DNA of 64,000 nt from Amoebophrya sp. A120 (Eukaryota; Protista; Dinoflagellata). Shown in pieces: positions 10,482 through 58,900 of this stretch. Position 1 is the stretch's first letter, and each line of letters starts with the position of its first letter. Location: positions 13,780,664 through 13,844,663 of the forward strand of contig CAJINV010000001.1 in assembly GCA_905178155.1 (NCBI GenBank), written 5' to 3'. Below the pieces are notes generated by a model, which had not been told where the DNA came from, did not search any database, and saw only the letters and a program-made list of their open reading frames with translations. Both the position numbers and the translations under genes were made by a program.

Positions 10482-13356
10482 ATGAGTGCGATCGGTGACT
10501 CTTGGGCGCTCGGCTATGGCATCCGGGACAAAGACGCGTCCGCGGTCTTGCAAGCAGCCACGGCGCAGCGGCTGCTCGATAATGGATATGCGGATCACAG
10601 CACGACCGCTGGGCAGAACGACCAGCAGCAGCTCTCCTATGTGTGCAACGCTCCGGTTGCCGCGTTTTACGACTTGGATCTCCTGGACCTGCATTTTCAA
10701 AACCTGATCAAGCTGTTCGGACCAACTTTCGTACACTGCATGGCCATCAAGTCTTGTCCCTTTTCCCGAATTCTGCAGCACGTGCACGCCGCCCACGGAT
10801 TTGGCTTTGAGTGCGCATCTCTAGGCGAGGTGTGGAACGCGAAAAATGTGATTGCCGAGGTGCAGAAAAATTGTGGTGTCATTGGCGGGATAAAACCCTT
10901 TTGTTCCCATTCTGCTCCGTCTGGTAGTGTCAAGCCTCTTGTTGAGAAGAAAGTAATATCAACGGAAACCGCCCGGAGTTCTTCGCAGAAACAGAACTTC
11001 ATCGTGTTCGACAGTCCGTGCAAGACGGAGCGGGAACTGCACTTCGCACTGGAGCACGGGATTTACATCAATATGGACAATTTTGCGGAGTACGAGCGCA
11101 TGAAGGGCATTGTGGCGAAGAGAGAAGCGGAAGCGAAGCTTATCTCTGCACCAATCGGACTGCGCGTCAATCCGCTCGTGGGCGCTGGTGAGATCAAGGC
11201 ACTGAGTGTGTCCACCCCCGATAGTAAGTTTGGCATCCCAATCACGGAAAAAGACGAGCTGCTCCGCGCTTACCAAGAATCCCCCTGGATGAACTCGCTG
11301 CACGTGCACGTTGGCAGCGGAAAGATGGGCTTGCACGTTCTCTCCGCCGGGATAAGAGTGGTGGTCGATTTGGCCAAGGAGATAAATGCCCGGGCTGGAA
11401 AAAAGCAAATCCAATACCTGGATATTGGGGGCGGCATGCCGGCCAACTACTTGTCCGACCGGATTCACCACGGTTCTTACAACGGCGACGAGCCGCTCTT
11501 GATAGAACACAGTGAAGACGAGGACGGCCGCGGGCAGGAGCATCCAGACGAGACTACATCAGAAGCTCAAAAGGACCCTCAAATAAATAGATTCTGGTCT
11601 TTCGAGGACTACGCGAGCGAGCTGCGCAGCAAAGTGCCAGAGCTTTTTAACAGCGAATTCCCTTGCGTCGTCACTGAGTTCGGCCAAAGTTTGACGGCAA
11701 AGCTGGGTTTTCTTGCGAGCCGCATTGAGTATCTGAAAAAGCCCGGAAACATCGCTATCCTGCATTTCGGCGCCGACTGTTGTCCCAGGCAGTGCTACAC
11801 GACCGCGCACACACGCCGGCTTGCGGTGTTCACATCGGATGGGAAAGAATTCAGCGCAACGAGGACTGGAACATCAAACACAAAGTCTAAGTTTTCCTTC
11901 GCCGGGCCACTTTGCTTTCAGGGGGACTTTCTTGCCAAAGACGAAGAGTTTCCCGCGGAGTTGCAGGTGGGCGATTTGTATCAAATGTAAAAATGTCTGG
12001 CGGGTCTGGAAGATTCTGAGACTTGTGATGCACGTTTTGCATGACCCATGATGTCTGTGATGCATGCCCTAGCATCACAGATGTTTTGAGGGCATCTTTA
12101 TGCCTATTCCTATGCCTATCTCACCTCCAGGGGGGGCGCGCGGACCTCGCTTGCCATCTCGTTTGGTTTGTGAAAGTTCCAGCCTCTCATGATGACGCGT
12201 AAAAAATCCATTTTACAGCTACCGCTTCGCTTTGCAAACACCGCATTCGAGGTAGTGCTGACCTGTTTTGTACCGTAATACGCAATTGTCTGACATTTCA
12301 AAAAAACAAAATTATTTCATCTTCTCGTCGCCATCATAAGTACCTTGAGGTGCCGCACACCTCTATCTCTAGTTTCTTGTTGATTACTTCTCGCTCGTTC
12401 GGTCGCGCATGTGCGGTGCAGCCCGCTCAGAGTTTTTTGTTTTTCATGCGACTCTGCAGCCCTCACGCATAAATTTTTGCATGTTTCAAGTCCTTGGACT
12501 TTTATGGGCTCACGCACATCCGAGATCGGGGGGGTGGGAGGGGGTCCTCAAGCCAGAAAAAAACCTCTCCAAGTGAAAGTAGGGGAGTTCAAGGTGCCTA
12601 TTCCGCATGACAAATGCCCTCTCCGCGTAGCAAAAATCGCATTGCCCTTGCTGCTCATGCAATACAGATTTTTTTGGAATCCAAAGGCAGCATCACAAGT
12701 TGCATTCTTCCAGACCCAGACATTTTTACATTTGATAATTTGGTGGTGCTTAAAGACACGGGCGCGAACAGCATCAGCCTCTTTTCTCGACATTGTTCCC
12801 GATTGTGTCCTATCAAATGTAAAAAAGTCTGGGTCTGGAAACTTGTGATGCTGGGTGGCGTCTCATGATGAGGCTACAGATGCTGGCTCAGCATGACAAG
12901 TTTCTGAGTTCCTAGGTGTTGCCTATTCTGCATGACAAACTGCGCTTCTGCATCACAGAAAAACGGAGCTCTTGGGTAACGTGCATGACAGATTTAAGAG
13001 TCATGCCAGACAAGCATGACAAACATGAATTCTTCCAGACCCAGACATTTTTACATTTGATATGTCCACCGGTGATCGGATTTCGTAGGCCAGATGAGAC
13101 CTCTCCGGACGTCGTTAAGTTCTACGAAATCAAGCCCAGAGAGCGGCTGGACGAATTGTGCGCGTTCTGGGGCGGGAGTAGCGGTACAACTGTCATGGGT
13201 GGTGGTGGTGACCAGTCGACGGCAATAAACAGAGCGAGTGGAAGACGAGATAGTTACCTGATAACCCCCACAGAAGAACCGTGTTGTACTTGCTCTTGCT
13301 TCGACTTCGTGCCTCGTTGGCTCCTCAAAGCCGGAATTAAGCTCTCGAGCGTTTAA
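10482..13356 (+). CDS. Group IV PLP-dependent decarboxylase (diaminopimelate/ornithine decarboxylase family), interrupted by two TIR elements
   Basis: Motifs AIKSCP (PLP lysine), FECASLGE, HVHVGS, LDIGGG, EFGQSL and FAGPLCFQGD. After removing 11979-12742 and 12811-13067 the frame reads VGDLVVLKDTGANSISLFSRHCSRLCPPVIGFR to the stop at 13356. Confidence 0.85.
11979..12737. mobile_element. TIR element / non-canonical intron E1 (family A), 759 bp, TSD ATTTG
   Basis: Left end TATCAAATGTAAAAATGTCTGG..GGTCTGGAAGA, right end TTCTTCCAGACCCAGACATTTTTACATTTGATA; ATTTG at 11974-11978 and 12738-12742. Confidence 0.92.
12111..12594. mobile_element. Nested ~484-bp insertion inside E1, flanked by 10-bp direct repeat TGCCTATTCC
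   Basis: TGCCTATTCC at 12101-12110 and 12595-12604. Removing the insert and one repeat leaves 265 bp, close to siblings E2 (252 bp) and E7 (263 bp). Confidence 0.65.
12811..13062. mobile_element. TIR element / non-canonical intron E2 (family A), 252 bp, TSD TGTCC
   Basis: TATCAAATGTAAAAAAGTCTGGGTCTGGAA ... TTCCAGACCCAGACATTTTTACATTTGATA; TGTCC at 12806-12810 and 13063-13067. Confidence 0.93.
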
Positions 13357-14434
13357 GAAGAAGTAGATAAGTACTTATGTGGTTATGTATTGCGAACCGA
13401 GAACAGTGATGGCACTCACGTCAGCAGGACGGAATTCGTTGTGCTATCGGAAGCTCCTGCGGCAAACAGACACCTGACTTGCTTTGCGTATACTGCAAGA
13501 AGTGTTCGCCGTCTTGTCTGTCCCACGAGAAGAACGCGACAGGCGTAAATCGTTGTAGCTATGTAAGTATTTCACTCCAATAAAGGCAACATTGCGTGGC
13601 GTCTTTGTCTGTCGTCTAGTTTCTCGTCAGTAAGCGCTTGGCAACCTTCTCCCTCGTTTCAATCTACTTACCGCCCTTGATTGTACTTTTCTCTGTGCGT
13701 GCACGTGTCCCCAAAAGTCTGTCTTAGTCGTTGCGAGCGCAGTGCCTGGTAAGTTGCATCTCCTACTTTTTCCTATGTGCGGCCCACATCTTCAAACGAG
13801 TTCCAGTGATGAGCTGCATCTGTGGTCCCAATCGAGTAGTCTGAGATGCGTTAGACACCACAGCCAATGCCATGTCATTATTGTGACTTCTCTATCCCAT
13901 TCCCTTGTCGAGTTTGAAATTTATATTATATTTAAGTGTAACCTAGAGAAAAACTAACTGTATACCCCCCACGCAGGAGCTTTTCGTCTCATTCCAAATG
14001 ATTTTGACTACAGAATGTTGCTAGACCACGGAGTTCTCTTCAATTTATGTGTCTGGTTTGTAGTTGTAGGTAAAAGTGCATCCATCCGCGATATCGTTGT
14101 GGATGAGAAAAGCAAAGGAGAGTTTTTGAATGAATAGTTTACTTAAGATCATTGTGATCATGGATCATCTCCCTGTCGTGTAAGTCGACTCTACTTCGTG
14201 TGAAAAAAGTTGGCTTCTTTTGTTGATTTTGTGTGAGCTTTTTATATTTTGCTACAAGCGGGGGCCAACGCTCTCGTACTACGTAATTTTGCGGCGCCGG
14301 CTTTTCGTCTTGCTTGTCGTCGGTGCCGACTTAGAAAAAGGACGGAGAATCCAGCGCTTCGGGCGTGTGCTGTTTTGTGCTACTTGGAAAGAGTTTTTTA
14401 AAAGGAAGGCGAGGATCAATTTTGGAGCCATATC

Positions 14435-17400
14435 ATGTACAGCAATCAGGATGCAGCTTCGTCGCCCGGAAAAACAGACTCCGCGTCGGGCGGACGTCGA
14501 CGAGAGAACAAGGGAAAGGGTCGGAAAGGTAAGATCAATACCAGTGCAGCAGTATGTTGTGAATGTTCGACTTTGAGCAGGGCATTGAAGAAAGTCACAG
14601 CTGCTCGAAGAATCTCTTTCTTTGGCACAAAACGTAAAACTTTTGCAACATCATGTGTAAAACTTACTTTCAACTACATTCGCAGGTAAAGGCAAAGAAG
14701 GTGGTCAACAGCAGGGAGCCCCTGCTTCTACCACCGGTGCTGCAGCTGCATCCACTAGCTCTTCACAATCTTCTGCTGCGCCGAAGGATCAGCAAAGCAA
14801 GAAGAACAGCCAAAGCGAGGACCATTCCTCGACCAAGGCCTGGGAGAACAACACTAGCAATGTGATTTACCGCAAGAAGCAAGTTCCGACGAGCGGCGGA
14901 GCCACAACTAGTGCAGCCAGCACTGGAACAAGCAACAAAGAGTCTACTTCAGCTGCGACGGCGAACTCCGCATCGCACAAGAAGAAAGACGAGCACGTCG
15001 GCAGTGGTACAAATAGTAGCTCGTCGAGCGCCAATGCTAGTAGCCATTCGTCCTCCTACCAGGAGGCGGCCACGAAGGCAGATCGCAGCAATAACGCTGC
15101 GGCTTCGACACCGCAAACGAGCAGCAGCTCGTCTAGTTCGTCCTCCAGTGCGGTCAACAGCCACCTGGAGGACAGCTCGAAGAAAGCGAAGAGGCGCAAC
15201 CGAGGGGGTGGTGGAGGTGGGGAAAAGGATGGTAGCCACCAGAGCGGTGCTCAACAAAAGCAGGAGAGTAATAGCAGCTATAAACAGGACAAGGACCACT
15301 ACAATGCGACGACGTACAAGGAAAAGGACAGCAGTGGCTACAGTAGCAAACAGGAGAAGCTGCAAGAATCTTCAGGTGCCTCGTACAGGGACCGGGAGAA
15401 GGAATACCGGAAAAAGGACGAACACTACTACAGCAACACGAAAACACCAACGTCGACGCAGTCTGGCGGGGCGGGAAATAGCAACCGAGCAGGTAACAAT
15501 CAGACCTCGTCTCACTGCTATTGCCATTTATGGAAGTGCGATTAATTTGAATTGTGTTTGGGATGCGATTGTCATTGTGGGTCTGCCTGCTGCAAAACTA
15601 AAATTTCTATAATCATCTGCGAGCGTATCGAGAACAAGTCATGAAATCAGCTCGAACTCACAACGTTAATATCAGACGCAAGCGACAGCTACCGCGACAA
15701 GCGAGATGACGCTTCGTCGAGCAAAAACGCCGGCAGCAACACGGGTCGGAAGAAAAAATCAAGTTATCGAGAAAAATATGAGAAGGATTACTCATCTTCA
15801 AAGGAGTATCGGGAGAGCAGCAAGGGCTATGGAAGCAGCCGAACCGGGGAAGTGAATCTCCGGGTAGAGCTTTGCTGCTTCACGCCATCACTGTATGAAA
15901 TATCATATCTTCTGCATGATGTTGTTTTGACCATCTTACAGTTGTGATAAAAGCTACAGCTGCGGCTGCCATACTTGCTTTCGGCCTCCAGCCGAGAGCC
16001 TGACCATGTAGCGAAGTTGTCACTTTCCGTACGACGCTTATCACTCCCCAGGACCCGGACTACGGCTATCACGTCAGCGGGCGCCGCCGGTCCTCGCGAT
16101 CCGGCGCTGCGACGCCGAGCGAGGTCGGCGACCATCCGGTGTCATCGAGCAAAAACTACACCACCGAAGAACCTTACCACCAGAATGGGCGACCTACTTC
16201 CACCTCCAGCTACAGAGAGCGCGGCGCAACTGGCGGTGTCCCAGCGCCGTCCTCCACCGTCACGGGCGCAAGCAGTTCCGCGTCGTCCTCCTCGAATGCG
16301 GGCGAGATGAACGAAGGTACGGGCAACGGGGCGACTTCCTACTCTGGGGAGGATGACGACGGAGCCGGTCGCTACACGAGCAACAGCCACGCTGGCGGCA
16401 ACAACAGGGGCGGGGAACAGGACCACCAATATCATGGTGACCACCAGCAGGGGGCTTCAACACGTGGGGGCGGATCATCTTCTGGGGCTACAGCCACGAC
16501 CTCCAAAGCGACGTACAAGAGTTTTGTCGACCAGAGTAAACAGCAAGACCAAGGCTACTACAAGAACAGCAACAAGAACTTCAATGGATCGGGAGAACAC
16601 CACCAGCTGCAAGAGGATCACTACAGCAAAAGCGGAAACAAGAATTTCCTGCCCTCCCCAACGGAGAGTTCGGGGAGCAGCGCTTTCAAAGGATCAAACT
16701 CCGGAAGCAGTTATCCAGGAAAAAAACTGTGTGAGTGTAACTTTGTAGGAAGAACAGCATCACAAATTCGTTTTGCATTACAGGGAAAACCTGTCATGCG
16801 CAGCTAGTACGTGGAAACACATATGATAGTAGCCTATGACGCAATTCCAGCATGATGAGTGTAACTGTTTTGCATTTTCTGCATCACAGATTTACACTTA
16901 CGCAGTTTTTTTCTTGCATAGCAGTTCCGTGTGGACGAATAAGAATCACGGTGGATCGTCTGCGGCAAGCGAAATAGACAGCGACTACCATAGAAGCACT
17001 TACGACGATGGCGCGGGCTCCGGAATACAGACAAACGATGGTGGTTCTTACAGCGGGTTTAATAATCACGGTGGTGGTAGCAACAACAATTACGGCAACG
17101 GACCTATCAATCTAAACAACGGGACGACCTCGGGCAGCCAACATTTCAACGGCACCACCAGTCTCGATCTCCCGTATCAGCAGAACCAAAACAGCGGGAG
17201 ACCGCCCAGAGGCCCCATGGACAGAAAGCCCAGTAACGGCGGGAACGGAAATAACAACTACGGAAGCGGCTACAACTACGATAACGGGCGGGGGATGGGA
17301 AAAGGTATAAACTGACTATTTGCAGAACTTCAACTTGCCTCTAGCTCCACTGTGGGGTTATTGATGTTATTGATGACTAACAGACACGAGGGTCGGGGCA

Positions 17401-24596: not shown

Positions 24597-24620
24597 GAGC
24601 GATATTTTCATGGCATCTTG
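24563..24620. repeat. Perfect 29-bp tandem duplication
   Basis: TGTGAGAGCGATATTTTCATGGCATCTTG twice (24563-24591 and 24592-24620). Confidence 0.9.
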
Positions 24621-27600: not shown

Positions 27601-27654
27601 CGACCCGTCTTGCAGCTGCCTCCCCGAAGGTCCAATCACCCGGTATAGCCTACC

Positions 27655-32633: not shown

Positions 32634-32919
32634 TACCCAGTGCAAATATGCCTGGGTATATGGAAAGTTGCATATGCTATTTCTTGTTCGTACTTAGTCT
32701 GTGATTGGTGAGTGCACTGCAAGACGCAGCCACGCATGACAAGTTTTTCAGCTGCTATGTGTTGCATATCCCGCGGGGCAGACTGCGTATTTACGAGATA
32801 GGCGATAGGATTCCATCTTCGGGATCGGGCTCATGTATCACAGACAAAGAGTTCAAGGTCATTTGACACAAGCACGACAAATTATCTTGTGCCCGACCCA
32901 GACATATTTGCAATGCATA
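32634..32919. mobile_element. Degenerate family-A TIR element E8 outside any intact gene; no TSD preserved
   Basis: Left TACCCAGTGCAAATATGCCTGGG; right GACCCAGACATATTTGCAATGCATA (rev-comp TATGCATTGCAAATATGTCTGGGTC, close to the E7 left TIR). Internal GCATGACAAG at 32734. Length ~286 bp. Confidence 0.7.
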
Positions 32920-41782: not shown

Positions 41783-41970
41783 ATTTAGCCAAGATTTAGC
41801 CGACCGATTTAGCCGACCGATTTAGCCGCATAGATTTAGCCGACCGATTTAGCCGGCCGATTTAGCCGGCCGATTTAGCCGACCGATTTAGCCGGCCGAT
41901 TTAGCCGGCCGATTTAGCCGGCCGATTTAGCCGACCGATTTAGCCGGGATTTAGCCGCATGATTTAGCCG
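41783..41970. repeat. 13-bp minisatellite GATTTAGCCG(A/G)CC, ~14 units
   Basis: Direct reading. Inverted copies of the core (GGCTAAAT) occur upstream at ~41665-41745. Confidence 0.9.
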
Positions 41971-43493
41971 GTCGCGGAAGTGTAGCAGGGAAATGCAGAA
42001 ACCCGCTGCGGATGGGATGTGGGCCAGCCCATAGATATCCAGGACCCGCGCAGACTTTCGCCGGCCCCGGCTTCCGTTTGGGTTGTCTATCTTGGGCCCG
42101 AGGGTTTCCGTCTTCCGGTATTTCCTTTCCGGGTATATTTCTCATTGGGCATGGGGTTTCGCATGGTTCCGCGCGCGGTCCATCCGGGCCGCCACGCAAC
42201 AATCGCAGGAAGCTCCTTGGGGTTTTTGCTTTCTTCTACCCGCGCCGCGCTGGCTTTCTCTTTTCCTCCGGCGGCAGCGCCGTCGGGGCCGCTTCTGCTT
42301 GCCCGGACTTTCAAAAAATCCCGAAAAAATTAGCCAAAAAATAACGGGCGAAGTCGCCCCAAACCCTCCAACTGACGAAAAACCTGCACCCAGAAAAACC
42401 CCACCACCCTTCCCCCCTCGCTTTAGGTCTATCTGGAGTACATGACGCCTCTAGCTGCAGGAGCAGTCCCGGGGTGTTAGCGCGGGAGGAGCGGAACCGG
42501 TGACCAGCTGCGTCAGCCAGGGCACATCGAAGCAGGTGGGTCTAGGGCAATGAGGGTGTGCCAGGCGGAAGGTGGTGGAGATGGGAACGGAGACAGAGTA
42601 GAACTTGTTGAGGCGCTTGTTGAGGCGGTAAAGTAGGTAGTAGCGTGAAGCCACAGCGCATAGTTAAGAAGTTAGAGAGCATGACACTGCGAGGCTCGAC
42701 CCGTCCTCGAACGGGGGCGGGTGAATGTAGCAAGCGGTGATCGTGATACAGAGGCTGTCGCTCGTCCGCCACACTAGTTTCCTAACAACAAGAAGAAAAA
42801 AACAAGACAAGGCGCCTAAGCTACTACTAATGCTTACGTGGTAAAACAGTAGAATAGCCGCGCGCCGCACTCAACCCAGGGGACCCGCTGAACGACGGCC
42901 GAGAGCCCGCCCGGTGAGGAGTTTCCTTATGTTCGTGTTCGTCTGCCCTCCACCCACTGCAGAAGAGCAACCTTGCAGATTTGAACCAGGTCGATCTTTT
43001 TCAAAAATCTCTGGCTAATTCACTCCGGTCCGCCTTGCTCTTAGAAGATCCGTGCGAAAAAGCACAAGATAAGCTGCTGCCAAGGTGTAGAACGGTTAGC
43101 ACAAGCGCAGGCCCTAGAGTGAAACATGAGCGGAATCGGGCTACAAGGCCACAGGTAAATCACCCCTGCGTCTTCCGGTCGGCCTTTACGAAACTGACTA
43201 CAAAAAACCGCGACGGTAGAAAGGGGGCGGTCTAGTCTACGGTCTAGATCGTCTCCACTACCATTCGAAAAAACGCAAGTCCCAGCTATAGCACAACAAG
43301 AGCGGCATCCGACCCGAGTGTAGTCAGCCGGACCATTTTTAGAAGACGTTGCGAGGTGGGCGGAGAGGCATCACGCGTGCAGTGGAACGAGAGGAAGGCC
43401 AGCGTTCAACTGTGTGATGTTCGTCGTATACTGTCCTGCCTAGTTCACTACTATCGATCTAGGCCCGTAAGACTAGTGTCTTTGATCGATCTA

Positions 43494-44999
43494 GGCCCGT
43501 CGAAGTTTTGCGTGCGGGTTTGGCCCTCTTCTACCCCCCGAAAAAAGGGGAGTCTCCAGACCCTTCAGGTCGTCCCTGCCGCCGGTGGTCACGTCCGCGT
43601 GGCGCTATCAGCGAATCAGCGATCAGCGAACTATTTATATATTATTCTGGCCTAATTCTAATTTATTATCGCCATGCGCACAGCGATGCGACCTCTGGTT
43701 ACTCGCTCGCTGCTTTGTATTTTGCTTTTTTGTATGGTCACGGCCCGACTGATGGTCGTCGATTGGTTGCATTCCTTCGTAGTTGATGTTCTCGCGGATT
43801 TTGTATTCGTATCGTATCTCCCTGTGTGTCGGTTCGTACATTGGTGTGTCGTTTTCCTGGAGCTTGATCGCAAATTCGTATGCTCCTTTCATGCTGTTGC
43901 GTGCATAAGTCTGATCTTCCCTGCCCCGCTTCCTCTTGCATTCGCCCCGGTAGGATTAGGTCTCTACTTTTTATTTACTTTTCTCTTGTCGTATAGGTTT
44001 ATGTCTGTTTTCTTACTGTTACTTCTGGACTTTCCTTTCTCGCCACTCCTCTTTGCATGCGTCCCTGTAGGCTTAGATCTCTACCCTTTTATCCTGCTTC
44101 TTCCCCTTATGTTTCTTCTCTTTACTATTGCAAACTTTGTAGCGCTAGTTGCGGATCCCGCGCACTCGCAGGGGCTTTGTTTTTTCCGCCTTGCCAGCGG
44201 GTTTGTTTGGGGGGCGCGAGAGTCAGTCTTTGGGGGTTCTAGCACTTGACGCTCAACAACGAGTTTCCGGCGGGGCGTCGCACAACTTTCCCTTCTACAC
44301 CCCTGCGGCCCGGGTTATTTGCGGGGCCATACCTGCATCGCAACCAAATTCGTGTTGATTTTCCCCGACCCAGATGCGCGTTTTTTTTCTGCTGCTGTCT
44401 TTCCGGCGAACACCTCTTGGTGCTCGTCAGTCTGCCAGGGCTTGTTTACATGCGCGCGCGATCTGGCGGTGGTGAAAATGTGCCACGACCGCGGTTTCCT
44501 CGTCGCGTCGGATTTTGCCTTACTTTTCTAATCGGAGGCTGGTTTGTTGTCTGCGGAACTCGCCCTTTGCACCAATCGATATATAATCTTGGGTCAGGTT
44601 TGCTAATCCTGGCAGTAGCATTCATCTGGTGTGTGGGTTCTAAACAACTTACTTGTTCCTCGGCGTTACTACGCCCGCTACTGCTTTTTGGTTGGTAAGT
44701 GGATAGATATTTTAAAGTTTGGTCTCCGCTTGTGGATGGCCGGCGAATCGCGCCACAAATGCACGCGTAGCTGCGCGTTACTCTTCCAGTTCGTGCGGAC
44801 TCCTGGTGTTGCTACCACCGTTGGGAGTATAAGAAAGAAGAACATAAGGACGTCGGGTTTTTGAAGGCTTTACATTATTCGACTCCCTTCCACTTTTTGG
44901 TCCTTTTGATGCGTTCACGCACATCCAGGATTTTTGTGGTCGGGGGCCCGCCGAAGTTTTGCGCGCGGGTTTAGCCCTCTTCTACCCCCCGTAAAAAGG
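43494..44999. repeat. Pair of 55-bp direct repeats (43494-43548 and 44945-44999)
   Basis: GGCCCG(T/C)CGAAGTTTTGCG(T/C)GCGGGTTT(G/A)GCCCTCTTCTACCCCCCG(A/T)AAAAAGG; 4 mismatches. Confidence 0.85.
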
Positions 45000-45008
45000 C
45001 ACGTCTTC

Positions 45009-45477
45009 NNNNNNNNNNNNNNNNNNNNNNNNNNNNNNNNNNNNNNNNNNNNNNNNNNNNNNNNNNNNNNNNNNNNNNNNNNNNNNNNNNNNNNNNNNNN
45101 NNNNNNNNNNNNNNNNNNNNNNNNNNNNNNNNNNNNNNNNNNNNNNNNNNNNNNNNNNNNNNNNNNNNNNNNNNNNNNNNNNNNNNNNNNNNNNNNNNNN
45201 NNNNNNNNNNNNNNNNNNNNNNNNNNNNNNNNNNNNNNNNNNNNNNNNNNNNNNNNNNNNNNNNNNNNNNNNNNNNNNNNNNNNNNNNNNNNNNNNNNNN
45301 NNNNNNNNNNNNNNNNNNNNNNNNNNNNNNNNNNNNNNNNNNNNNNNNNNNNNNNNNNNNNNNNNNNNNNNNNNNNNNNNNNNNNNNNNNNNNNNNNNNN
45401 NNNNNNNNNNNNNNNNNNNNNNNNNNNNNNNNNNNNNNNNNNNNNNNNNNNNNNNNNNNNNNNNNNNNNNNNNNNNN
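45009..45477. other. Assembly gap (N run)
   Basis: Run of n characters. Confidence 1.

Positions 45478-45530
<53 letters not shown>
45478..45530. repeat. (CT)n microsatellite, probable retroelement 3' tail
   Basis: Pure CT repeat running directly into the right TSD copy. Confidence 0.9.
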
Positions 45531-45535
<5 letters not shown>

Positions 45536-45688
45536 ATTCTTATTGTTTTTTCTTGTACTAGCCGCTGCCTCGCCCTAACTCACGACCACTGAAATATTTT
45601 TTCACGGGTTGCTGCGACAGCGAGGAATGATGCACGCGGTCTCTTGATTGTTTTGCTTTCGGCAGCACCTGCAATCTCGTCATTGATT

Positions 45689-47218: not shown

Positions 47219-47832
47219 ATGAAATCTCGAGTGCTGCGCAGATGTGATCGTGTCCGCGGAGGGATTTTTTTTGTTCAATCCGCATGCTTCGTTCATCCTT
47301 GTTGGGTGCACGACGAGAGAAGTTCTTGTTTATCTTGTAGCCGTTTAGTTTACGAAATACGGCGCGTGCGCGTCATTGAGGTACGAGATCAAAGAGAGAT
47401 TTTGGCTGCCGTCATGAGATGAATTTGTCATAGCCAATCGTAGAAGTGTCTCCCTTCTTGTTTTGCTATTGCAATAATATACATAGAAACAAGACGAAGA
47501 CCACCTGAGAAGTGGTTTCTTTCACGAATTTTCCATTTCATGATGGACGTTGTGTAGTTCGGTGATTTTACTTTGTTTCTCATCTTATGTGCTGCTTCCG
47601 TTTCGATTTCTAAGTTTCATTTTGCTTTCGAAATTTTGCATTTTCTTTTCGTGCGGTCGTGACCGGCGTCGCGAAGAAGTACTACTAGAGATGATGTAGA
47701 CGTGTTGGCCTTGGCAGCAGTAGACTTGGTCCGCTTCTTCATTCACTTTTTTCCTCGAGCTTCGTCGCCCTGTAGGTGTAGTGCCTACGTTTTTCCAGCA
47801 CTACCGACTTAGTGGCCAGGATCGCACCGACC

Positions 47833-50800
47833 ATGCCCGGCACAGCGACTACCACCGAGCTGCTGTTCTATCCGGAGGAGGATGAAAAATCCGAGAAGGA
47901 CAGAAAAGTTGGATTTTGGGAAATCGCTTCGATTGCAAGTTTCAATTTTCCCTTCGGCGCGCTCTGCGGACCCATGGGCGTCGCGATCTTGCCCCTGGAG
48001 GCCGAACGACTGGCGCCGGATATCACAGTGAAAAGTGTTAACGTTAACGAAACTTGTCATGCAGTAATGCACCACAAAACATGCCTGAATTTGTAATGCA
48101 TAGCATGCATATTGGGCTACATTTGTGATGCATGACTGCAATCTGTGAAAATTTAACAACGTCAACACTTTTTCTTGTGATACCGGAATCGTCCAGCATT
48201 ATGCTTGGCTTCATGATGGGCATAGTCGGCGTTACGCAGCTCGTATGCCCACTAGCTGGCATCCTGAGCGACATGCATCGCAGCAAAATGGGGAAGAGGC
48301 GCCCCTTTGTTTTCGGTATATTAATAGTGTTACCAATGGGTGGAAGTTCGGGTTCACCCGGCGTTTAAGTCGCGCAGATCATGTCATTCTCAGTGTTCAT
48401 TCGCGTACTTTGTCTGCTATGACAAAAATTGTTTGTGTTTCGCGATTTGATTGGTTTGGGCCCACCGTTGAAATATCTGCCTTCACCAGACGACCACTAG
48501 CTCCAAATCCTCCGGCGCTTTCAGGTGGCGGCATCGTGACGGTTGTGAGTCTGGCCGGGATGTGGTTTTGCTCGCTGGAAAAGATGAAGTACGAATTCAT
48601 TATCTGCCTCGTTGCGTCCATGACGGGACTGAACGTGGCGTACACCGCTTCCTACGGACTGGTACCGGACCTGATCCCCACCAAGGACCAGGGCATGGCC
48701 AGCGGCATCGTGGGCGGGCTCCAGCTGTTCGGCAGCCTGACCGGGTTCATCTTCCTGATCGTCACCTACAGCTACGACTACCACATAAATTACCTCCTCT
48801 ACGCCATCTACCTGGTCATGTCGCTCCTCCTGATCGCCGTCGTCGCACAGGAAGAGGACACCAGCAACTTGATTCGCCCGCCCTTCAGTTGGCGGCAGGT
48901 GCTAAGCTCCTATACCATCGACTGCTCCGAGAGTTACGACTTTCTCTGGGTCTTCGTCGGGCGGACGTTTTACTACGTGGGCATTTCCTGCCAGAGCTTC
49001 GTGCTGTTCTTCGTCCGCGACGTGATCAACGTGGAGGAGGTGAGTGCGCAAAAGTACCACGTGGGCGCGATGGCGCTGCTGGCGCAGCTGGTCGGCGGTG
49101 TGGTCGCCGTGCACGCGGGGAAGCTATCGGACAACAAGTATTACAATGAAAAATGTCCCCACACCCGAACTTGGGAGCATTTGTATTGCAAACCTTTCCA
49201 AATGAAACATTCGCTCTGTTGCATCTATCAGCATCACAGGTTTCCAATCGTGAATAGCAAAAATTTGTATTGCAAAAGACCCCAGCAAGAGCGGCGCTTG
49301 TCATGCAAGCGATGCGATACACGAACACGCCTAGACTCTGCATCAGAAAGATTCATACTCCTTTCATGCATGACAAAAAGTTTTCATTTAGAAACTTCGC
49401 ATCACAAATTTTTGCATCACAAATTTTTGCAATTTCAGGGGTGGGGGGCACTTTTCACTGTAATAGCAAGTATTTCGGCCGCAAACGCTTGGTGTACGCC
49501 GCCTGCACCATCATGGCCTGCGTGTACGTGCTGTGGATGGCCACCCCGTGGATCTTCCGGAACGAGATCCGGTTTTACCTGAATCACCTGGATTTCGACC
49601 AGTACTTTAAGAAATTTTTGCCCAAACGGGCAAGACAGTACTTGACACAGGACTACGTGTACGGGAGCAGCGGTAGCGCGGAAGACGCGAGCGGGCCACT
49701 GGAGGGCAGTATGGCGCACGCCAGCATGTCCTACAAGAATTACAATGCCGCTGCAGTAGATGGAGGTGGGGAGGATGATGTGATTGGCCTGGGAAGGACG
49801 GAAAATGGAGGAGAAGACGGAAAAGCAGCCTCCTCGTCAAGCAGAGAAAGGAGGAGAGACTTGGCCGCTAAAACGTCCGCGAAAAATAATGAATCCCGAC
49901 CGCGCAACGAGTGGCTCGGGCAGGGGGAAAAGCTGCTGCGGCCATACGATAAGGACGCTTCATCGGTTGTCGAGAAGCAAGGACCAATAGCAAGCTTTTG
50001 GAGTGATGTGGCAGCCTCCTTCTCCACAGGTAATGCAAGAAAGAACAGCAGTAGAAGAAAAAGAAGAAAGCTCGACGTCGAGAAGACAACTGAAAAAGAA
50101 ACCCGTGATAAGGAAAGCAGTCCAGAGGAAGCGCAGGAAGAGTCCGAGTTTTCAGCGCTGAATATGGCACCAACGTCCTACCGCAACACCTTGCCTGCCG
50201 CTAGCGGCGCCGCCGCCGCTGCATTGGTATAGTGGAGTCTTTCAGGTTTGGTGAATAACAAAATGCTGCGAATTTGGAGATCATCGAATTTCCAGAAATC
50301 TCAATCTTCTGGATAAAATAAAAGTACCTACGTGAGATACGTACTTCGCTCGTACGCTTTTCTCGCATCAGACGAGCACTGTTTATTGCAAACTCGAGGA
50401 TGAGGCTGAGGACTTGTTAAATCACTCGAAATCATAAAAAAACTGCATCAGGCCGAGGCAAGCGTGGACAGCAGCAATACCAACACCGCACCAACGGACC
50501 CGGAAACAACTACGGTCAGCACGACCGTGCAGGATGACGTGGAGGACAGCCCGGAGTGGGGCGTGTTTAACCTCCCCGGGAACAGTCGCACGACCCAGGG
50601 GATGGAGCTGATGTTTCTCTATATCCTGAGTGAAAACGTCCCCACACCAGAGTTGTAATGCAGATTTGCAAGCACAGGAGCACATCCCCATGAGAGGCAT
50701 TTCCCATCGTGTTTTGGAACTTGTAATGTTGCAAACAGGATGAGGAGATGGATTTGTTATGCGGCTTCCCTTGCTAAGCTGCACTACAGTACAGCATGCA

Positions 50801-52304
50801 ACTTGTCATGCGTGACCCCCAAAACTTCAAGGTTTGTGTTGCAAAATCCCCATCTTGACTCTGGTGTGGGGACGTTTTTAAATATGATACTCTACGGCTG
50901 CATGGCGGTTTACGGTGTGGGCAACGGGGCCTACCTAGCCGTCGACCTCGCGCTTGCTTTGGACTGCCTGCCCGATCCGGAGACCTCGGCGCAATCGCTC
51001 GGCATCTGGGGCGTGTCCGCCTTTCTGGGTCTCGCGATCGGGCCGCTATTGTGGGGGTAAGTCGCTGATGTTGTGCTGCGCAAAGTGATCTATCGATCGC
51101 CGGAAATTTTCACCGTGACCGGGCTAGCGCGGGCACTTTTTGGGAATCGCGGCGCGGTGGTGAAATCACAAGCGCCCTGCGTTTCCCCGAGCTAATGCTC
51201 GCCGAAGGCCTTACCGAAAATGACACATCTTTGCAAAAAAAGCAGCCGGAGACTTTCTCCGTGACCGGGCTAACGCGGGCACTTTTTTGGAATGGCAGCG
51301 CGCTGGTGAAATCACAGGCGCTTTGCGCTTCCCCGAGCTGTTTCGTGCCAAAAGCCCTACCCGGGAAGGCGTTTTTTTTCAAAAAAAGCAGCCGGAAATT
51401 TTCTCCGTGACCGGGCTGACGCGGGCACTTTTTTGGAATGGCGGCGCGCTGGTGAAATCACAGGCGCTTTGCGCTTCCCCGAGCTGTTTCTTGCCAGAAG
51501 CCCTACCCGGGAAGGCGTTTTTTTTCAAAAAAAGCAGCCGGGAATTTTCTCCGTGACCGGGCTAACGCGGGCACTTTTTTGGAATGGCGGCGCGCTGGTA
51601 AAATCACAGGCGCTTTGCGCTTCCCCGAGCTGTTTCTTGCCAAAAGCCATACCCGGGAAGGCGTTTTTTTTCAAAAAAAGCAGCCGGAAATTTTCTCCGT
51701 GACCGGGCTAACGCGGGCACTTTTTTGGAATGGCAGCGCGCTGGTGAAATCACAGGCGCTTTGCGCTTCCCCGAGCTGTTTCTTGCCAAAAGCCGTACCC
51801 GCGAAGGCGTTTTTTTTCAAAAAAAGCAGCCGGGAATTTTCTCCGTGACCGGGCTAGCGCGGGCACTTTTTTGGAATGGCAGCGCGCTGGTTAAATCACA
51901 GGCGCTTTGCGCCTCCTCGGGCTGTTGCTTGCCAAAAGCCGTACCCGGGAAGGCGTTTTTTTTCAAAAAAAAGTGCCGGAAATTTTCACCGTGACCGACC
52001 TAAGGCAGTCACTTTTGAAAAATGGATCCTCAAATGGGCTTTCTTTGTGTTTTGCAGAAGAGACAGGGTATTGAGCAAAAGACAACGTCGAACGAAAACG
52101 AAAACGGCAGTTGTGATGTTTCAGTTACTGCATGCAAAAAAATTCCAATCTACCTCCAGGTCCGCGCTGGAACTCTCCGGTGGCGAAACTATTGGGGATG
52201 TGCGGGTCTACCCCTACACGGGCTACGCCTATATGCTGCTTGGCGGTTGTGTGTTTTGCTTCCTCTCTGGTGCCGTGGTGCGAAAAATCAAGAAAAGCAC
52301 GTAA
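47833..52304 (+). CDS. MFS transporter (GPH/SLC45 sucrose-symporter-like); 7 exons, 3 GT-AG introns and 3 TIR-element introns
   Basis: Motifs PLAGILSDMHRSKMGKRRPF, GLVPDLIP..DQGMASG, AGKLSD..YFGRKRL and YGVGNGAYLAVDLALALDCLP. GT-AG introns 48316-48524, 50227-50451 and 51057-52159; elements E4, E5 and E6. Confidence 0.85.
48021..48182. mobile_element. TIR element / non-canonical intron E4 (family C), 162 bp, TSD CCGGA
   Basis: Left TATCACAGTGAAAAGTGTTAACGTT; rev-comp of right TATCACAAGAAAAAGTGTTGACGTT. CCGGA at 48016-48020 and 48183-48187. Removal gives ERLAPESSSIMLG. Confidence 0.9.
49139..49465. mobile_element. TIR element / non-canonical intron E5 (family D), 327 bp, TSD ACAAG/GCAAG
   Basis: Left TATTACAATGAAAAATGTCCCCACACC; rev-comp of right TATTACAGTGAAAAGTGCCCCCCACCCC. 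Flanks 49134-49138 and 49466-49470 differ at one base. Removal gives GKLSD(N/S)KYFGRKRL. Confidence 0.88.
50622..50889. mobile_element. TIR element / non-canonical intron E6 (family D), 268 bp, TSD CTCTA
   Basis: Left TATCCTGAGTGAAAACGTCCCCACACCAGAGT; rev-comp of right TATCATATTTAAAAACGTCCCCACACCAGAGT. CTCTA at 50617-50621 and 50890-50894. Removal gives ELMFLYGCMAVYG. Confidence 0.9.
51101..51997. repeat. 146-bp tandem array (~6 units) inside a GT-AG intron of the MFS gene
   Basis: Unit ...CCGTGACCGGGCTAACGCGGGCACTTTTTTGGAATGG...AAATCACAGGCGCTTTGCGC...; near-identical ORFs recur at 51287, 51433, 51579 and 51725 (period 146). Confidence 0.95.
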
Positions 52305-53051
52305 GTAGATCAGAAAGGGATGGCGCACACGCGGGAAAGCCGATGTGAAAAATACTGACGCAGATGTTGCTTTGACCTGTGCTGCTACAATGAAATACGC
52401 TTTTTCTGGGTGTGATTCTCATTCATTGTATACGAAAACTGACCAACGAGTAGTGACTCGCTGTGAAGTAAGTTGTGCAGACTCAAACCACCGTCATCTC
52501 CATGTTTTGCACGCGACTCCTTTCAGCCGTCCTCCTACAACCACAAATGTTGTTTAAGCTCTCACTCGTTCATCTCTTGCAGAATTCATTGTGCATCGTT
52601 TTTCTTTGGTGCTTCACGTTTCCTGTGGGTCGTTTGTCTGCGTCTGAGTTAATTTCACTTCACTTTCAGATCATCTTCATGTTCATCGTCATTTTCATCG
52701 GCAATAAAAGAGATCAGGCGTACCGCGCACGGTGTTTCAAAAATCAAGGTGATCTCTTTTGTTTTTCGATGTAGCTCGCCGACGGAAAAGAAAGATCCTG
52801 CTGTCAGTTTTTTGGTGACTAAAGACCTTTTCCGTTGGTAGAACGACGAAGCAAGCGGCAGGAAAAGTGAACTTCTATCGGCCTTCTGTTTTGCGTTTTG
52901 TCCCTGCTTCCTTTGGGTGAAAGGTTTCGTTTTCAACTGTGTTGCAGAACCTGCAACGCCGGCCCAGGCTGACGCAATCGTCCCAGTGCTCGACGCTGCG
53001 AGTGGACCTTGTGCATCAGCGTATCAATAAGCACTATAGCCGACGACAAAG

Positions 53052-55801
53052 ATGAGCTCTACTGCGTCGCGTCACTGGTTTGTCTACGCGTTCGTTTTGC
53101 TTCCGCTGACGTATCTACTGTTTGACGCCGAGCGGTTGCAGAGTTGGAATTTGTCGAAACTCTCCCTTGAGGAAGGCCTGGTCGACTTTTCCTGGGCCCA
53201 TTTTTCCCTGCGAAGACCAGAATCCCAACCACCTCCGGACCATGTGCCACCTCTGGAATCGCGTGATGGGGATCATCCGCAGCTCGGCCAGGCAGCCGAG
53301 GAAGCGGGTTCCGCGAGAAGCGTAATCCGAACGAAGCCGCTACCGGTATTGGGGAACGACGGTGAAGTCGCTGCTGCGGCGAAGGGACGACAAATATCCC
53401 TGACGCCACTTGCGAGTGTGGACGCGGGCGACGACGACTCTTCTGCAACAGAGTTTGAACCATCAGAAGCAATAGGTAAAACAGAGACGAGTAGGAGCGT
53501 AGGACCGAGGAACCCACTGTCTTTCACGGGGCTGCACTTTGATGATGGCCCATATCAGCACCAGAACCGACCCGCCGAATCCGCTGCATCGCGAGATAAC
53601 TACTGCAAGTTGCTGGCGCAGGCGAGCACCTATGGCTTGATCGACTTCTCCATCTTCGATTCGGACTACTGTTCGAAGCCAGATCCGTCCGCAAGCGCCA
53701 ATGCCATGATCGACACAAACAGTATCGACTGCACCCGTCTCATGGAATTTCTTTACCTCACGCGCGGCAGCACGAAGAAACAAATCCTTCACGAAAAGGA
53801 GCTGCTGAAGCGGGTAATTTTTTGAAGCATTCGTTTGAAGAGCTTACGCTGAGGACAAACTAAAAATATGAGATCGCAAGAATTGCAGCAAGAACTACAA
53901 TGTTGAGATGAAAGACAACCGCATGTTGATCGAAACGCCGCCAACGACCTTTTTCAGGATGCCTCCGATCCCGAATCGGGCTACCCAGTAGTGATGTACG
54001 TCAATCGAGTGGGCATGTTTGTCACCGCCCACGCACACATTGTGGGCGCGATCATTTCGCAGCGAGACGAATGCTTCTCCGAGCAAGTGCGCTTGCTCTT
54101 CGTCGTCAACTTGCGCAGGTAAGAACTGGCCTGGTATTGGGAGGCTGGCATTTTTTGGACGTCAATTATGTGACGAGGATGGACGAATTTGACATGCATA
54201 AACACAGCAGCGAAACACACCTCGTTTGCGTTTGGAAAAAGATTCTGCTTCAATTTCTTGTCAGGTTCAAAACCCTAGTGTCGGAGCAGTTTCGCATCGT
54301 GTGGCTGGCCTACCAAGGTGTGGACAAGGAAGGTTACTGCATGACAGAAAAGTGCACCAAGCGCGCCGCGACCTTCCCGGAGGTTGTTGAGAACTGGACG
54401 ACGAGGGTCACGAAGCTTTTGGATAGCGACTTGAAAACCTTCAAGTCAGTGTTGGAAACCTGGCGGCCACCTCTCCCCGAAGAAGCGCACTTCTACTCGC
54501 ACGAGACTGATGGACGGTGAGATAAGGGAAATTGCACACTGTCATGTGGCCTTCTGATCGTTGCTTTACAATGCTCTAGGTCGGCAATAGCCATGATCAT
54601 GAATGGTTGTTGATTGAAAATGATTATCGTGTCCTTGGCTGCGGAATTTTTTATACATGCTACTGCTCCAGGTTCACCACCCTTGAGATGCTCCGTCGTG
54701 CGACCTTCAACGAATGGTTTGTGGATACAGGCATGCTCCGGGCGGCTCTGCGGAGCGGCGTCTTTCCCGTTGGTTCCACGGTGGCGGACCTCGGCGCCGG
54801 GACGGGAGAGTACGCACGCTGGCTGAACGATACCGGGTTGGTGGACGCGTTTTCCTTCGACGGCAGCGCAGACATCGAGTTGCTCACGAAAAAGAAAGTC
54901 AAGCACTTGAACTTGGTACGAATTGCCGCAGCTTTGCGTTGCTCTCAAGATTATTTCTTCGCGTTGTACACGAGAGAAGGGAGGCCACATTTTATGCAGT
55001 TATACGTGTTAAAAATCGTAATGACGCACACACTGCGTCGAAACTGAATGCAACTGTTTTATTTGCCAGGTTACCTCCATCCGCCGTCCGCTGAAGCACA
55101 ACTGGGTTCTCCTTCTGGAAATCTGCGAGCACATCCCGGCGGAGTTGCACCCTATCTTCTTCCAGAATGTCGGCGGTTTTGCTGGCGACGGAATTGTGCT
55201 CAGTTGGGCGCCCCCACAGGTGCCCAACATCGGACACACCAACCCGCTCCCGGAGCAGGACGTGCGGCAGGTCCTGCAAAAGTTCTTGCCACTCTTCTCC
55301 GTGGATCAGGAGGCTACGCAGCTCTTACGGGCGCACAGTCAAGTTGGTAAAAATGCGATAAAGACATAGCCTGAAGATCTTCTACGACTTTGTAGCAGGG
55401 GTTAGGGTATGAGTTTGTTGCCACCGCTATCATGATAGTCTTTTGTTTGTTGCAAGAGTGAGAAAAGTCACACAACACCCTGCTAATCAGGTTGGCTGAA
55501 AAACACCCTAACTGTTCTTCGCCGGTATCCGGAGAACCTGCTGGCAGGGCTGGAGCCGACTTGTTATGCGGAGGAGCATGTAATGTTCGCCGGCGAGGAC
55601 GATGCCGTGCTGGAACAGACCGACGCGCCGCAGACCTGCTGCGACGCTTGCCGGCAGAATCCCGACTGCCGCTACTGGGTCTGGTCGCACTCCCAGAAAA
55701 CCTGCTGGCTCAAACGCACGAAGGTGTACCAAACAGAGGAAAAGGGCTTTCTCAGTGGGACCAAAGACCCGCAGGCTGGCGGGAACGCAGGAGACTTGTG
55801 A
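53052..55801 (+). CDS. Membrane-anchored/secretory class I SAM-dependent methyltransferase with C-terminal PAN/apple-like domain, 6 exons
   Basis: N-terminal hydrophobic anchor WFVYAFVLLPLTYLLF; motif I VADLGAGTG; LLLEICEHIP; C-terminal CCDACRQNPDCRYWVWSHSQKTCWLK. GT-AG introns 53814-53957, 54119-54264, 54517-54671, 54916-55069 and 55347-55490. Confidence 0.75.
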
Positions 55802-56400
55802 AGAAAGACTGTTATGTGGACGAAGGTAAAGTAGAGCTAGCACGTGGCTCCTGCTCTCACGAATGCTATCATAAAGAACAGAAAGAATATCTCGCTCTAG
55901 AGTTCTTGCACAACGACATAGTACGAGATTGAAGTGAAAGCAAACAAGTGACGAAGATGTCCGTCTTCCATGGGTTCCCTCGTGCGATGGAATTTTCCGC
56001 GAATCCTTGGGCTGTTCCACCGTGGCCACACACGACAGTAAGGAGAGAAGAGCGCCTGCCTCTTGAGGAATTCCAGCGGATATGCAGAGTGAACAAGACT
56101 ACAACTCCAGGCCACTCTAAGAGCAAATCTTACGAGTAGACTCAGCCACCTGAAAGAATCGACGCTTTTCATGAAAACTTAAACTAAGTACATGAACCAA
56201 AGACAACAAAGCCCGAGCTATCTGCATGCGAGGAGCGACTTCAATTGAAGCGCTCGAAGAGGACGCATGAGGATATTCCTCCCCTGCGGAGGGAGTCCCC
56301 GCGCTCCTGTGCATCAAGCACGCTGCTTCGCAAAATGAAGGCTGCACCTAGAACCACAAAGATGGCACACCAGCAAAGATTCCGGCCACGGCCAGGAGCA

Positions 56401-58900
56401 ATGCAGCGATCGCGCTCGACGCTCTTCGCCACCCTGGCCCTCGGCTCACCATTCATCTTTCCGGTTCTTCAACTTCCCCACTTTGTCCGCGCGCAGTCCC
56501 GATTCGCGATCGATCTCGGGGATGTCGACCCGAAGAAGCCGCCCGAGGAGGCCTCGGCGTTTTTCAACCCGACGACACAGCAGCTGCAGGTGCAGGCCGG
56601 CGAGGCGCACGACGTCGCCCCCTGGGCGCACGCAAGCTTCAAGGATTCCCTGGAGAAAACCGGGTGGACCGAACTACGGGTAAAGACCTCCACGGACGGC
56701 GGAATCCCCGCAGACCTGAAGATGTACGCGGCCGGGGTGCTGGAGGGACTGCTGTCCGCCGTGCGGATCTCGCAGTTCTTCAGCAACGCGCTGCGGACCA
56801 TCATCCGCACGGAGGACGGCGGGAAGGCGCTGAAGAACGTGATGAACATGCTGCAGGACGCGAACCTGTTCGTGCAGAAGAAGACGAACTTCCTGCCGGG
56901 GAAGGACGCGCCGCCCAGTCCGGACCCCTACTGGAAGCAGGTCCGCTACGTCTACGCGCAGGTTCGGGGCTTGCGGGACGGGTACAACCTGGCGGCGGCG
57001 GCCCACGGCGTCAAGGAACTGTCCATGGCGGAACTGTTGCTGCTCAATAGCCACGGCGAGCTGGGCGAGCTGCTAGAGGCCTACAGTCCGAATCGTGCCA
57101 TCGCCCGGAGGCGCTTTCAAGCCGCGACTGCGGTCTTCTTGCAGGAGAAGGCGACGGGGGATGCGGTGGAGATGCGCGACGCGAATCAAAAACGGGCATT
57201 TCTCGCGACATCCTCGAAGGAGCGGCAACAATCTGATGAATCTAGCGCCTCAAGGAGCAGTAGTACAAGAAGCGTGCAGCAATACGACGCCAAGGAGTTT
57301 CCTTTTCTCGCAGCTATTGCGGAACATGAACGGGAGCGGGCTGCGAAGAGTTCCGCCGGTTTTTCGCCGCTAGTGCACGATGTTGAGGAAAGTTCGTTCC
57401 TCTCATCATCTTCTGCTCCCTCTACCAGGTCAACAACTACTACATCGTCAACTAAAGACGCCGCCTCGACCGCCGCCCTTGCCGACAAGTTCTGGGAGCG
57501 CAAACTGGCCCGCACCGGGCACTGCAGCGCGCTGGTGCGCATTACCCCGGACAACAAGGATCTGTTGGTCGGACACACCTATCAGCTGCAAATATGTCTG
57601 GGTCTGGAAGAGTGCCAGCCTTGTCATGCAGGTTTTCCATGACCCATGAGGTCTAGCATGTAGGACATACCATGACAGATTCTATGAGAGTTCTATCATG
57701 CCTATCCTGCGTGAGAAACTGCCTCGCGATTAGGTCAAAAGTGGACCGCTTTTGGCAATCATGCAACACAGATCGTATACATGAATCAGATTTAGCATGG
57801 CAAGTTGCTTTGTTCCAGACCCAGACACTTTTGCATTTGATAACACCACGTGGGACGACTACGCGAAGATGACCCGCGTGTTCAAGTACTACGACTTCCC
57901 CTTGGACCGGTGGACGGCCTCGTCCGTCGTGGGCATGAGCTCCTACCCGGGGTGCGTCTCCTCCACCGACGAATTTTACCTGCTGTCGGCCGGGATCGTG
58001 CTCGGGGACACCAGCCTGGAGGTGCTGAACGCCGAGGTGTACGACCGCATCCCCGAGGGGCCCAAGCTGCCCAGCTTTTTCCACGTCATGGCCGCCAACC
58101 GCATGGCGCGGACCGCGGGGCACTGGGCGGCGCTGCTCACGGAAAACAACAACGGGCTGAAGAACGCGCAGTGGTTCGCCGTGGACTACAACCGCTTCGT
58201 GCCCAAGGCGGACGTGCCCACGAACCTGCTGTGGGTGGTGGAAACCATGCCGGGGCTCAGCGAGAAGAAGGATCTGTCCTCCCGCCTGATGGACGCCGGG
58301 GAGGTGGCGGACGGGACCGCCAGCAGCAGTTCCGCGTCGCAGGGCCAGTACTTTGCGTCGTTCAACCGCCCGATTTTCCCGGAGATCCGCCAGCGCCTGG
58401 GCCACCAGGACGCGGAAAATTCCTACGGGATTCTGTACTCCGCGGACCGCAACCCGCGGGCGCAGATTTTCGCCAACTGGGTCACGCAGGTGGAGACGCT
58501 CCGCGACATGCGCATGCTGCTGCGCGAAAACAACTACCCGAACGAGAAGTTTTTGGGGCAGGGGGCGGCCACCTGGTCGCTGCACCCCGGGCACGCGATC
58601 GCCGCGCGGCTGGACCTGGATCCGGGTTTGCTCAACCCAAATGGTGCGATTGACGCCAAGGCCGTCAACTACTGCTTGGTACAAAAAATGCAGATGCAGG
58701 TGATCTCCGGCCCGAGCCACGTCAAGCAGCCGGTGTTTGCCTGGAGCCAGGGAAGTGCCTTCCCGGGGTGGCCGCATTTAGGGCTGCCGGACAAATACGA
58801 TTTTCACTGGCGGCAAGTGTCCATCGCGGGGGATAAGGAGGACGAGCTGCACGACTTCGATGACAGTCAAAGTAAGTGTAGCCCTCGCGCGCCAGTGTAA
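56401..58900 (+). CDS. Phospholipase B-like Ntn-hydrolase (PLBD family), interrupted by TIR element E7; start may be 56335 or 56362
   Basis: Signal-peptide-like N-terminus; motifs TGWTELRV, YAAGVLEG, HCSALVRI, DLLVGHT|TWDDY (joined across E7), MSSYPG..SSTDEFY, YFASFNRP, PRAQIF and GAIDAK. Confidence 0.9.
57580..57842. mobile_element. TIR element / non-canonical intron E7 (family A), 263 bp, TSD ACACC
   Basis: TATCAGCTGCAAATATGTCTGGGTCTGGAA ... TTCCAGACCCAGACACTTTTGCATTTGATA; ACACC at 57575-57579 and 57843-57847. Confidence 0.93.

Follow-up and report, generated by a model that had tools for sequence, protein, structure and literature searches.

A conserved, regularly spaced internal motif is shared by the TAT-ended introner families of Amoebophrya sp. 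A120

A stretch of 64,000 nucleotides of the dinoflagellate Amoebophrya sp. A120 (contig CAJINV010000001.1, positions 13,780,664 to 13,844,663; referred to here as the window, with positions counted from its first letter) contains eight elements with terminal inverted repeats (TIRs), named E1 to E8. E1 to E7 are TAT..ATA inverted-repeat introns flanked by 5-bp direct repeats, six of them perfect and that of E5 matching at 4/5 positions; E8 is a degenerate copy. E4 to E7 are removed in transcript-like contigs. All eight elements carry the same internal word, GCATSACA or its reverse complement TGTSATGC, which recurs in every larger family of such elements that we sampled, is strongly enriched over other DNA, is better conserved than its surroundings, shows no preference for the transcript strand, and is spaced in steps that fit the turn of the double helix. 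From the sequence we consider it likely that these copies form an array of protein-binding sites on double-stranded DNA, which would help to bring the ends of non-autonomous DNA transposons together and to cut them, and that splicing would depend on the symmetric terminal stem and the direct repeat.

The initial annotation of the window had placed the motif in all eight elements and judged it by eye to be rare elsewhere, and both statements held. The motif was recovered at every position given, one of which had to be moved by a single base (49230 to 49231), together with further copies that are marked in Table 1. The exact word occurs 28 times in the window, i.e. 24 times in the 2,522 bp of the eight elements and four times (at 8225, 33064, 42679 and 54339) in the 61,009 bp outside them (binomial p=4e-30). 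When the elements were shuffled with their dinucleotides preserved, they contained on average 0.52 copies and at most four (1,000 shuffles). As a control for the choice of the word after inspection of the same sequence, the best degenerate 8-mer was sought in 200 shuffled sets of element interiors; it never exceeded 10 copies or six of the eight elements, compared with the observed 24 copies in 8/8. The enrichment also held in the comparison named beforehand, against GT-AG introns and non-element DNA: 16 GT-AG introns with contig support (3,912 bp) contain no exact copy and three sites of the motif profile described below.

Further elements were collected by scanning for a two-ended TIR pattern in which the motif played no part, and this led to at least 131 loci. 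Of these, 116 lie on JACKZZ01 contigs (526 kb, non-redundant); the remaining 15 proved to be chance pattern matches from other records, in which the motif is absent, and were dropped. Elements were called by their ends and direct repeat only, giving 444 candidates, 30 of which were removed by length, end or arm filters. The resulting 414 elements fall into 15 multi-member families, 14 of them with five or more members, and 13 singletons. The largest, family 0 (family A of the initial annotation; 192 copies), is over-sampled by the search pattern; spacing statistics were therefore weighted by family, strand counts and densities being given per copy. The exact motif is present in 377 of the 414 elements and in all 14 larger families (the lowest values being 1/5 and 62% of members), including families without an A-run in their ends, as well as in 7/13 singletons. 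In the loci it occurs 9.6 times per kb within elements, 9.9 times per kb in element fragments and 0.24 times per kb elsewhere; of the 94 hits elsewhere, 46 have another hit or an element fragment close by. The refined motif reads approximately (T)GCAWNACARR(T), and its profile finds 1.8 to 9.8 sites per element, depending on the family, versus 0.14 in shuffles. At least one profile site occurs in each of the 414 elements, on which the profile was itself trained.

The window elements are 70-98% like members of the sampled families, the match of E4 being confined to its ends, and E2 is 98% identical to one element of the fetched loci. The summed contig depth of E3 reached 15,077 versus about 43 in its flanks (run X1), a value which indicates a repeated family rather than a copy number. 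The sole end feature common to all families is TAT, itself a filter requirement in the 414-element set; the inner TIR is family-specific and often contains a short doublet of 5-6 bp. A shared terminal pattern of TAT, an A-run about 10 nt further in and then (T/C/A)GT had been proposed for the window. Its TAT stands in all families and TIRs composed of TAT, about seven nucleotides and an A-run are present in 7/8 window elements, whereas in the larger sample the A-run and the (T/C/A)GT turned out to be family-specific, the full pattern fitting between 0 and 92% of ends, depending on the family. An A-run is found at 90% or more of the ends in 10 of the 14 families and is weak or absent in four, in two of which it is nearly absent. 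The direct repeat is strictly 5 bp long (of 388 repeats, 274 match exactly at this length and none at 6-10 bp). No target-site preference and no strong phase rule were observed among the sampled elements. E5 and E8 had suggested that position 1 of the direct repeat varies more freely than the others; this was refuted, mismatches numbering 10, 21, 9, 8 and 16 at positions 1 to 5. Few gaps occur within subfamilies (about 0.2% of alignment cells), and lengths vary little within families (109, 150, 209, 252/262, 280, 307 and 322 bp), which suggests a length constraint, even if this is partly a product of the clustering. A search for inverted-repeat elements with other ends gave one clear case (L017:2011-2333), with perfect arms in AT-rich DNA and the motif absent.

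Within families the motif is conserved beyond its surroundings. Private changes in the motif number 85, versus 186 expected from the other interior sites, which corresponds to 0.018 per site in the core and 0.039 elsewhere inside the elements. Among the 116 copies beyond the reach of the search pattern the difference is larger (0.018 versus 0.052 per site). Mismatches between the two direct repeats measure post-insertion change, since they are able to arise only after insertion; at 0.043 per pair they are about equal to the total divergence of the core (0.034), and the terminal TAT diverges by 0.009. This pattern fits a motif that is kept in transposing lineages and decays after insertion.

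The copies of the motif are also regularly placed. Same-direction pairs 31-33 bp apart occur in a mean of 10.7 of the 14 families versus 2.0 under random placement, and the best window of any null arrangement reached nine families in 1,500 draws; such pairs are present in six of the eight window elements. B-form DNA has about 10.5 bp per turn and A-form RNA about 11 bp. Over all motif pairs the best period is 10.4 bp (p=0.003, with the scan over periods taken into account), with a fit of 0.33, as compared with 0.08 at 11.0 bp. The first inward-facing site lies 40-41 bp from the element end in five families, 48-52 bp in five, and 52/63 or 60-61 bp in two, and its distance from the end is phased (p=0.03). 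The spacer sequences differ between families. With the motif masked, interiors of different families align like shuffles (16.9 versus 16.3), in a test that is weak for short elements and in which three within-family scores are also near the shuffle level. A three-site module within the 31-33 bp spacer was considered and dropped as weak (19% at one position).

The two forms of the motif are equally frequent on the transcript strand (445:422, p=0.45), as counted in the 358 of 414 elements to which a gene strand could be assigned by a codon model rather than by RNA. Sites in one direction only were found in 54 of the 414 elements, and in these the transcript forms split 25:24. The larger subfamilies are inserted in both orientations. 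As there is no bias for the transcript strand, a single-strand signal is unlikely and the evidence points to double-stranded DNA. Of the two roles offered by the initial annotation, the one in transposition is therefore favoured over that of an RNA excision factor.

Removal of the elements was followed in assembled contigs. Contigs of run X3 skip 167 (E4), 332 (E5), 273 (E6) and 268 (E7) bases, i.e. the element plus 5; each join is seen in one contig, and the RNA nature of the run is the guess of the tool. The same contigs also drop GT-AG introns, and the contig joined across E5 retains the A of the left repeat copy. For E3 and E8 no precise join was present among those listed, cover being low in X3 and X4. 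Removal of E1 and of E2, each with 5 bp, restores the frame of a pyridoxal phosphate (PLP)-dependent decarboxylase, as judged from the reading frame and not from RNA. In the loci the frame is kept after removal of the element plus 5 in 114 of 118 testable elements.

Based on these observations, we suggest that the elements are non-autonomous cut-and-paste DNA transposons (MITEs, miniature inverted-repeat transposable elements), with the 5-bp repeat as their probable target-site duplication. In this scheme TAT is where a transposase would cut, and the inner TIR is what it would read in each family. The motif would be the target of a second DNA-binding activity, shared by all families, for which a conserved domain of the transposase, a helper encoded by an element or a host protein might be responsible. 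Binding would take place at about 40, 50 or 60 bp from the element end and once more three turns further in, so that the two ends would be aligned. If only copies with a good array yield new copies, the motif would be kept and the spacers would drift. Splicing would rely less on the motif than on the terminal hairpin and the direct repeat, which look alike whichever way round the element lies. The initial proposal of a common recognition signal for one trans-acting protein agrees well with the presence of the motif in 14 families, its conservation and its spacing in DNA turns; the part naming a single protein was not borne out, given family-specific inner TIRs and the failure to find a transposase.

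Several observations weigh against a role of the motif in transposition. No transposase or binding protein domain was detected in 20 open reading frames (ORFs) of the window and 79 ORFs of the loci and long elements (for the loci, 65 of their 97 longest ORFs; about 0.6 Mb covered), and the text of Farhat et al. reports no transposase in A120 and argues against a general transposase-driven spread of its introners (PMC7789003). The long elements L062, L050, L018 and E1 contain no Pfam domain, and viral contigs, scanned twice, gave no match to the element ends. A test for decay of the motif after insertion, made on copies whose direct repeats mismatch, was run in three versions, with p values of 0.009, 0.076 and 0.44. 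The periodicity derives mostly from the 31-33 bp peak, and after removal of these pairs p rises to 0.24 with a scanned period and 0.02 with the period fixed at 10.5 bp; one family has no 31-33 bp pair, and two lack an inward-facing first site. Insertion orientation is mildly skewed in the largest subfamily (44:26), and in two small ones all copies lie the same way round (6:0 and 5:0). Finally, motif bases are predicted to be paired more often than other interior bases (0.76 versus 0.59); of 373 sites, 47% have another motif copy as their predicted partner, the mean probability of such pairing being 0.44.

Among other explanations, the one that survives best, unlikely as we consider it, is that the phased array is bound, in the DNA of every inserted copy, by a host protein which marks the copy for removal from the nascent RNA or lets it be tolerated, so that the motif would matter after insertion. 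Strand neutrality and the spacing in DNA turns fit this equally well, and it would agree with the halved rate of private changes in the motif, with the retention of at least one profile site in every element and with the report that U1 snRNA was not detected in Amoebophrya (PMC7789003, as stated in its text). However, a mark needed after insertion sits poorly with a core whose divergence is about that accumulated by the direct repeats since insertion and with a terminal TAT better preserved than the motif, and no binder is known. Rather doubtful as well is a combination of the two roles, in which one shared DNA-binding protein reads the phased array in every TAT introner family and serves both as a transposition helper and as a DNA-level mark for RNA removal. 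If true, this would account for the splicing of signal-less introns in both orientations by a lineage in which U1 went undetected.

We regard it as improbable that the motif is an RNA signal, read on the transcript by a splicing or excision factor. It is limited to non-canonical introns, with no exact copy in the GT-AG introns surveyed, and 360 of the 414 elements carry it in both directions, so that either strand usually shows a copy; nevertheless, neither the transcript forms as a whole nor those of the one-direction elements are biased, and the spacing follows the pitch of DNA better than that of RNA.

Nested hairpin arms, also put forward in the initial annotation, would extend the terminal stem and require only pairing, and the pairing predictions given above, together with the fact that E4 folds as a whole-element foldback (z=-8.0), are in their favour. 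So is the likeness of symmetric inverted copies at variable positions (0.69). Non-symmetric inverted pairs, however, are no more alike than direct pairs (0.58 versus 0.60), and 924 of 2,174 sites (42%) have no possible inverted partner, the one-direction elements being a further count against. Moreover, pairing alone would not call for one and the same sequence in 14 families, in family 2 about six sites are retained at a motif-to-motif pairing of only 0.13, and the strongest spacing rule concerns copies in the same direction. As a main cause this explanation is largely refuted and very improbable, the hairpins being at most a by-product. It is likewise highly unlikely that the motif is a relic inherited from a common ancestor and now without a function: one ancestral transposon group is indeed suggested by the TAT ends and 5-bp repeats that the families share, and the masked alignments are weak for short elements, but within young subfamilies the motif is two to four times more conserved than its neighbours and the spacing survives where the spacers share nothing.

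By all features tested, the elements are introners of the A120 type, with which they share TAT TIRs, a short direct repeat, non-GT-AG removal (E4 to E7) and an organization in repeated families. In the text of Farhat et al. the A120 introners are about 240 nt long, fall into many families and are associated with co-oriented genes; their inverted repeats start with TAT, followed by seven looser bases and at least three A, and their direct repeats measure 3-5 nt (5 bp in the legend of Fig. S19) (PMC7789003). Since our elements match this description, their terminal pattern was already known. They depart from it in the strict 5-bp length of the repeat and in the lack of an A-run in some TAT families. 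The internal motif and its spacing were found neither in the text and supplement legends of PMC7789003, which describe only the ends, nor in the available text of PMC11453091, nor in the wider literature searched (figures were outside the scope), and the shared phased internal motif is therefore apparently new.

Repeated subterminal motifs bound by the transposase are known from Ac/Ds and En/Spm. Lemi1 proteins are described as binding the TIRs and subterminal repeats of the Emigrant MITE (PMC1636448, available text). The A120 elements resemble MITEs with subterminal sites in being non-autonomous TIR elements with repeated inner motifs: they are short and non-coding, with TIRs, a direct repeat of fixed length and many copies, and inside their ends they carry a repeated motif in both directions which is more conserved than the spacers and for which binding is predicted. 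In contrast to Emigrant-type MITEs, the motif is here a single one, shared by families whose inner TIRs differ, and takes up most of the element; the elements are introns, and the binder is putative. IS3EU and GingerRoot elements are alike in their TA..TA ends and lack of target preference, as far as described in the available texts (PMC10045372, PMC6839031, PMC12730594), and two of our families start with TATGG, fungal IS3EU ends being given there as TAYGG..CCRTA; membership in these groups was rejected on the length of the duplication, which is mostly 6 bp in those texts, a length at which none of our 388 repeats matched.

Spacing of transposase sites that follows the helical pitch of DNA is described for a CRISPR-associated transposon (CAST), and the ends of Tn7-like elements and CASTs, with several protein sites per end at helix-dependent distances, offer an analogy of working only (PMC10201428, available text). 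Those elements are bacterial and autonomous and have TG..CA ends, unlike ours. A 5-bp duplication is known from the Tn7-like group. A lead for the missing partner is an integrase-like TIR family in A120 (family 38), which is not a Ginger according to the available text of PMC12130899.

At stake are the spread and the recognition of tens of thousands of non-canonical Amoebophrya introns. A shared, conserved and DNA-phased motif constitutes a sequence-level argument for a protein-DNA transposition complex, and it makes two questions separable, i.e. movement, to which the motif would belong, and splicing, for which the terminal hairpin and direct repeat would be responsible. In practical terms, a pair of motifs spaced by 32 bp is a defined bait for the missing protein, and the motif is a sensitive marker for annotating decayed copies.

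The coordinates of the elements and of their host genes are collected in Table 1. The start of E8 is most likely at 32642, a boundary set by eye from the reading frame, with the left end truncated and about 8 bp probably gone. For the host protein of E4 to E6, no Pfam match was obtained with the one piece tested.

Table 1. Introner-type elements and host genes of the window. Motif positions are those of exact copies; † marks copies additional to those of the initial annotation.
Feature	Position	Strand	Description	Direct repeat	Exact motifs	Direct pairs
E1	11979..12737	.	family A, 759 bp, inner insert of ~490 bp	ATTTG	12024†, 12056†, 12072†, 12605, 12690	32 and 31 bp apart
E2	12811..13062	.	family A, 252 bp	TGTCC	12844†, 12891, 12930, 12950, 12983, 13014	33 and 31 bp apart
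E3	16712..16920	.	family B, 209 bp	GCAGT	16757, 16792†, 16881	
E4	48021..48182	.	family C, 162 bp	CCGGA	48055, 48124	32 bp apart
E5	49139..49465	.	family D-like, 327 bp	ACAAG/GCAAG	49231, 49299†, 49368, 49399, 49414†	
E6	50622..50889	.	family D, 268 bp; six profile sites, five in the same direction	CTCTA	50804	33 and 31 bp apart (profile sites)
E7	57580..57842	.	family A, 263 bp	ACACC	57622	32 bp apart
E8	32642..32919	.	degenerate family A	CCAGT/GCAGT	32734	
Host gene of E1 and E2	10215..13356	+	PLP-dependent decarboxylase (Orn/DAP/Arg family); PF02784 E=2.5e-23, PF00278; joined frame; start approximate			
Host gene of E4-E6	47809..52304	+	multi-spanning membrane protein, transporter-like by eye; X3 joins; ends approximate			
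Host gene of E7	56188..58900	+	phospholipase B family; PF04916 on both sides of E7; X3 contig; ends approximate			

Some elements show features of their own. The insert of about 490 bp in E1 (12111-12596) lies between two copies of TGCCTATTCC; it was unmatched in the fetched loci and gave no Pfam match. Elements of family 0 carry a second internal word, TGCCTATTC, just before one copy of the motif (e.g. at 12595-12604 and 12920-12929 of the window). A 1,194-bp element located in a gene (L062:10243-11436) has ends like those of family C, a 5-bp repeat and few motif sites, with no Pfam match, and is possibly a deletion derivative of a longer element. At L008:1735-1830 a cluster of motifs stands just after a GT-like donor, CAG/GTATGCAT, and might be an old element that has turned into a canonical intron.

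The window also contains repeats of other kinds. A 146-bp tandem array (51099-52016; 6.3 copies, 91% match) lies inside a GT-AG intron of 1,103 bp. The segment 30640-30920, at a transcript end, is repeated, with raised depth in X1, X3 and X4 and many loose ends, and is not a TAT element. A repeat-like region precedes an assembly gap (43490-45008); pieces of it are similar to L002/L003 and L079, and no ORF was identified in it. Smaller arrays comprise a 263-bp repeat in 2.9 copies (59623-60370) and a 13-bp repeat in 13.8 copies (41793-41970), and several copies of a 24-bp inverted repeat occupy the very start of the window (2-180).

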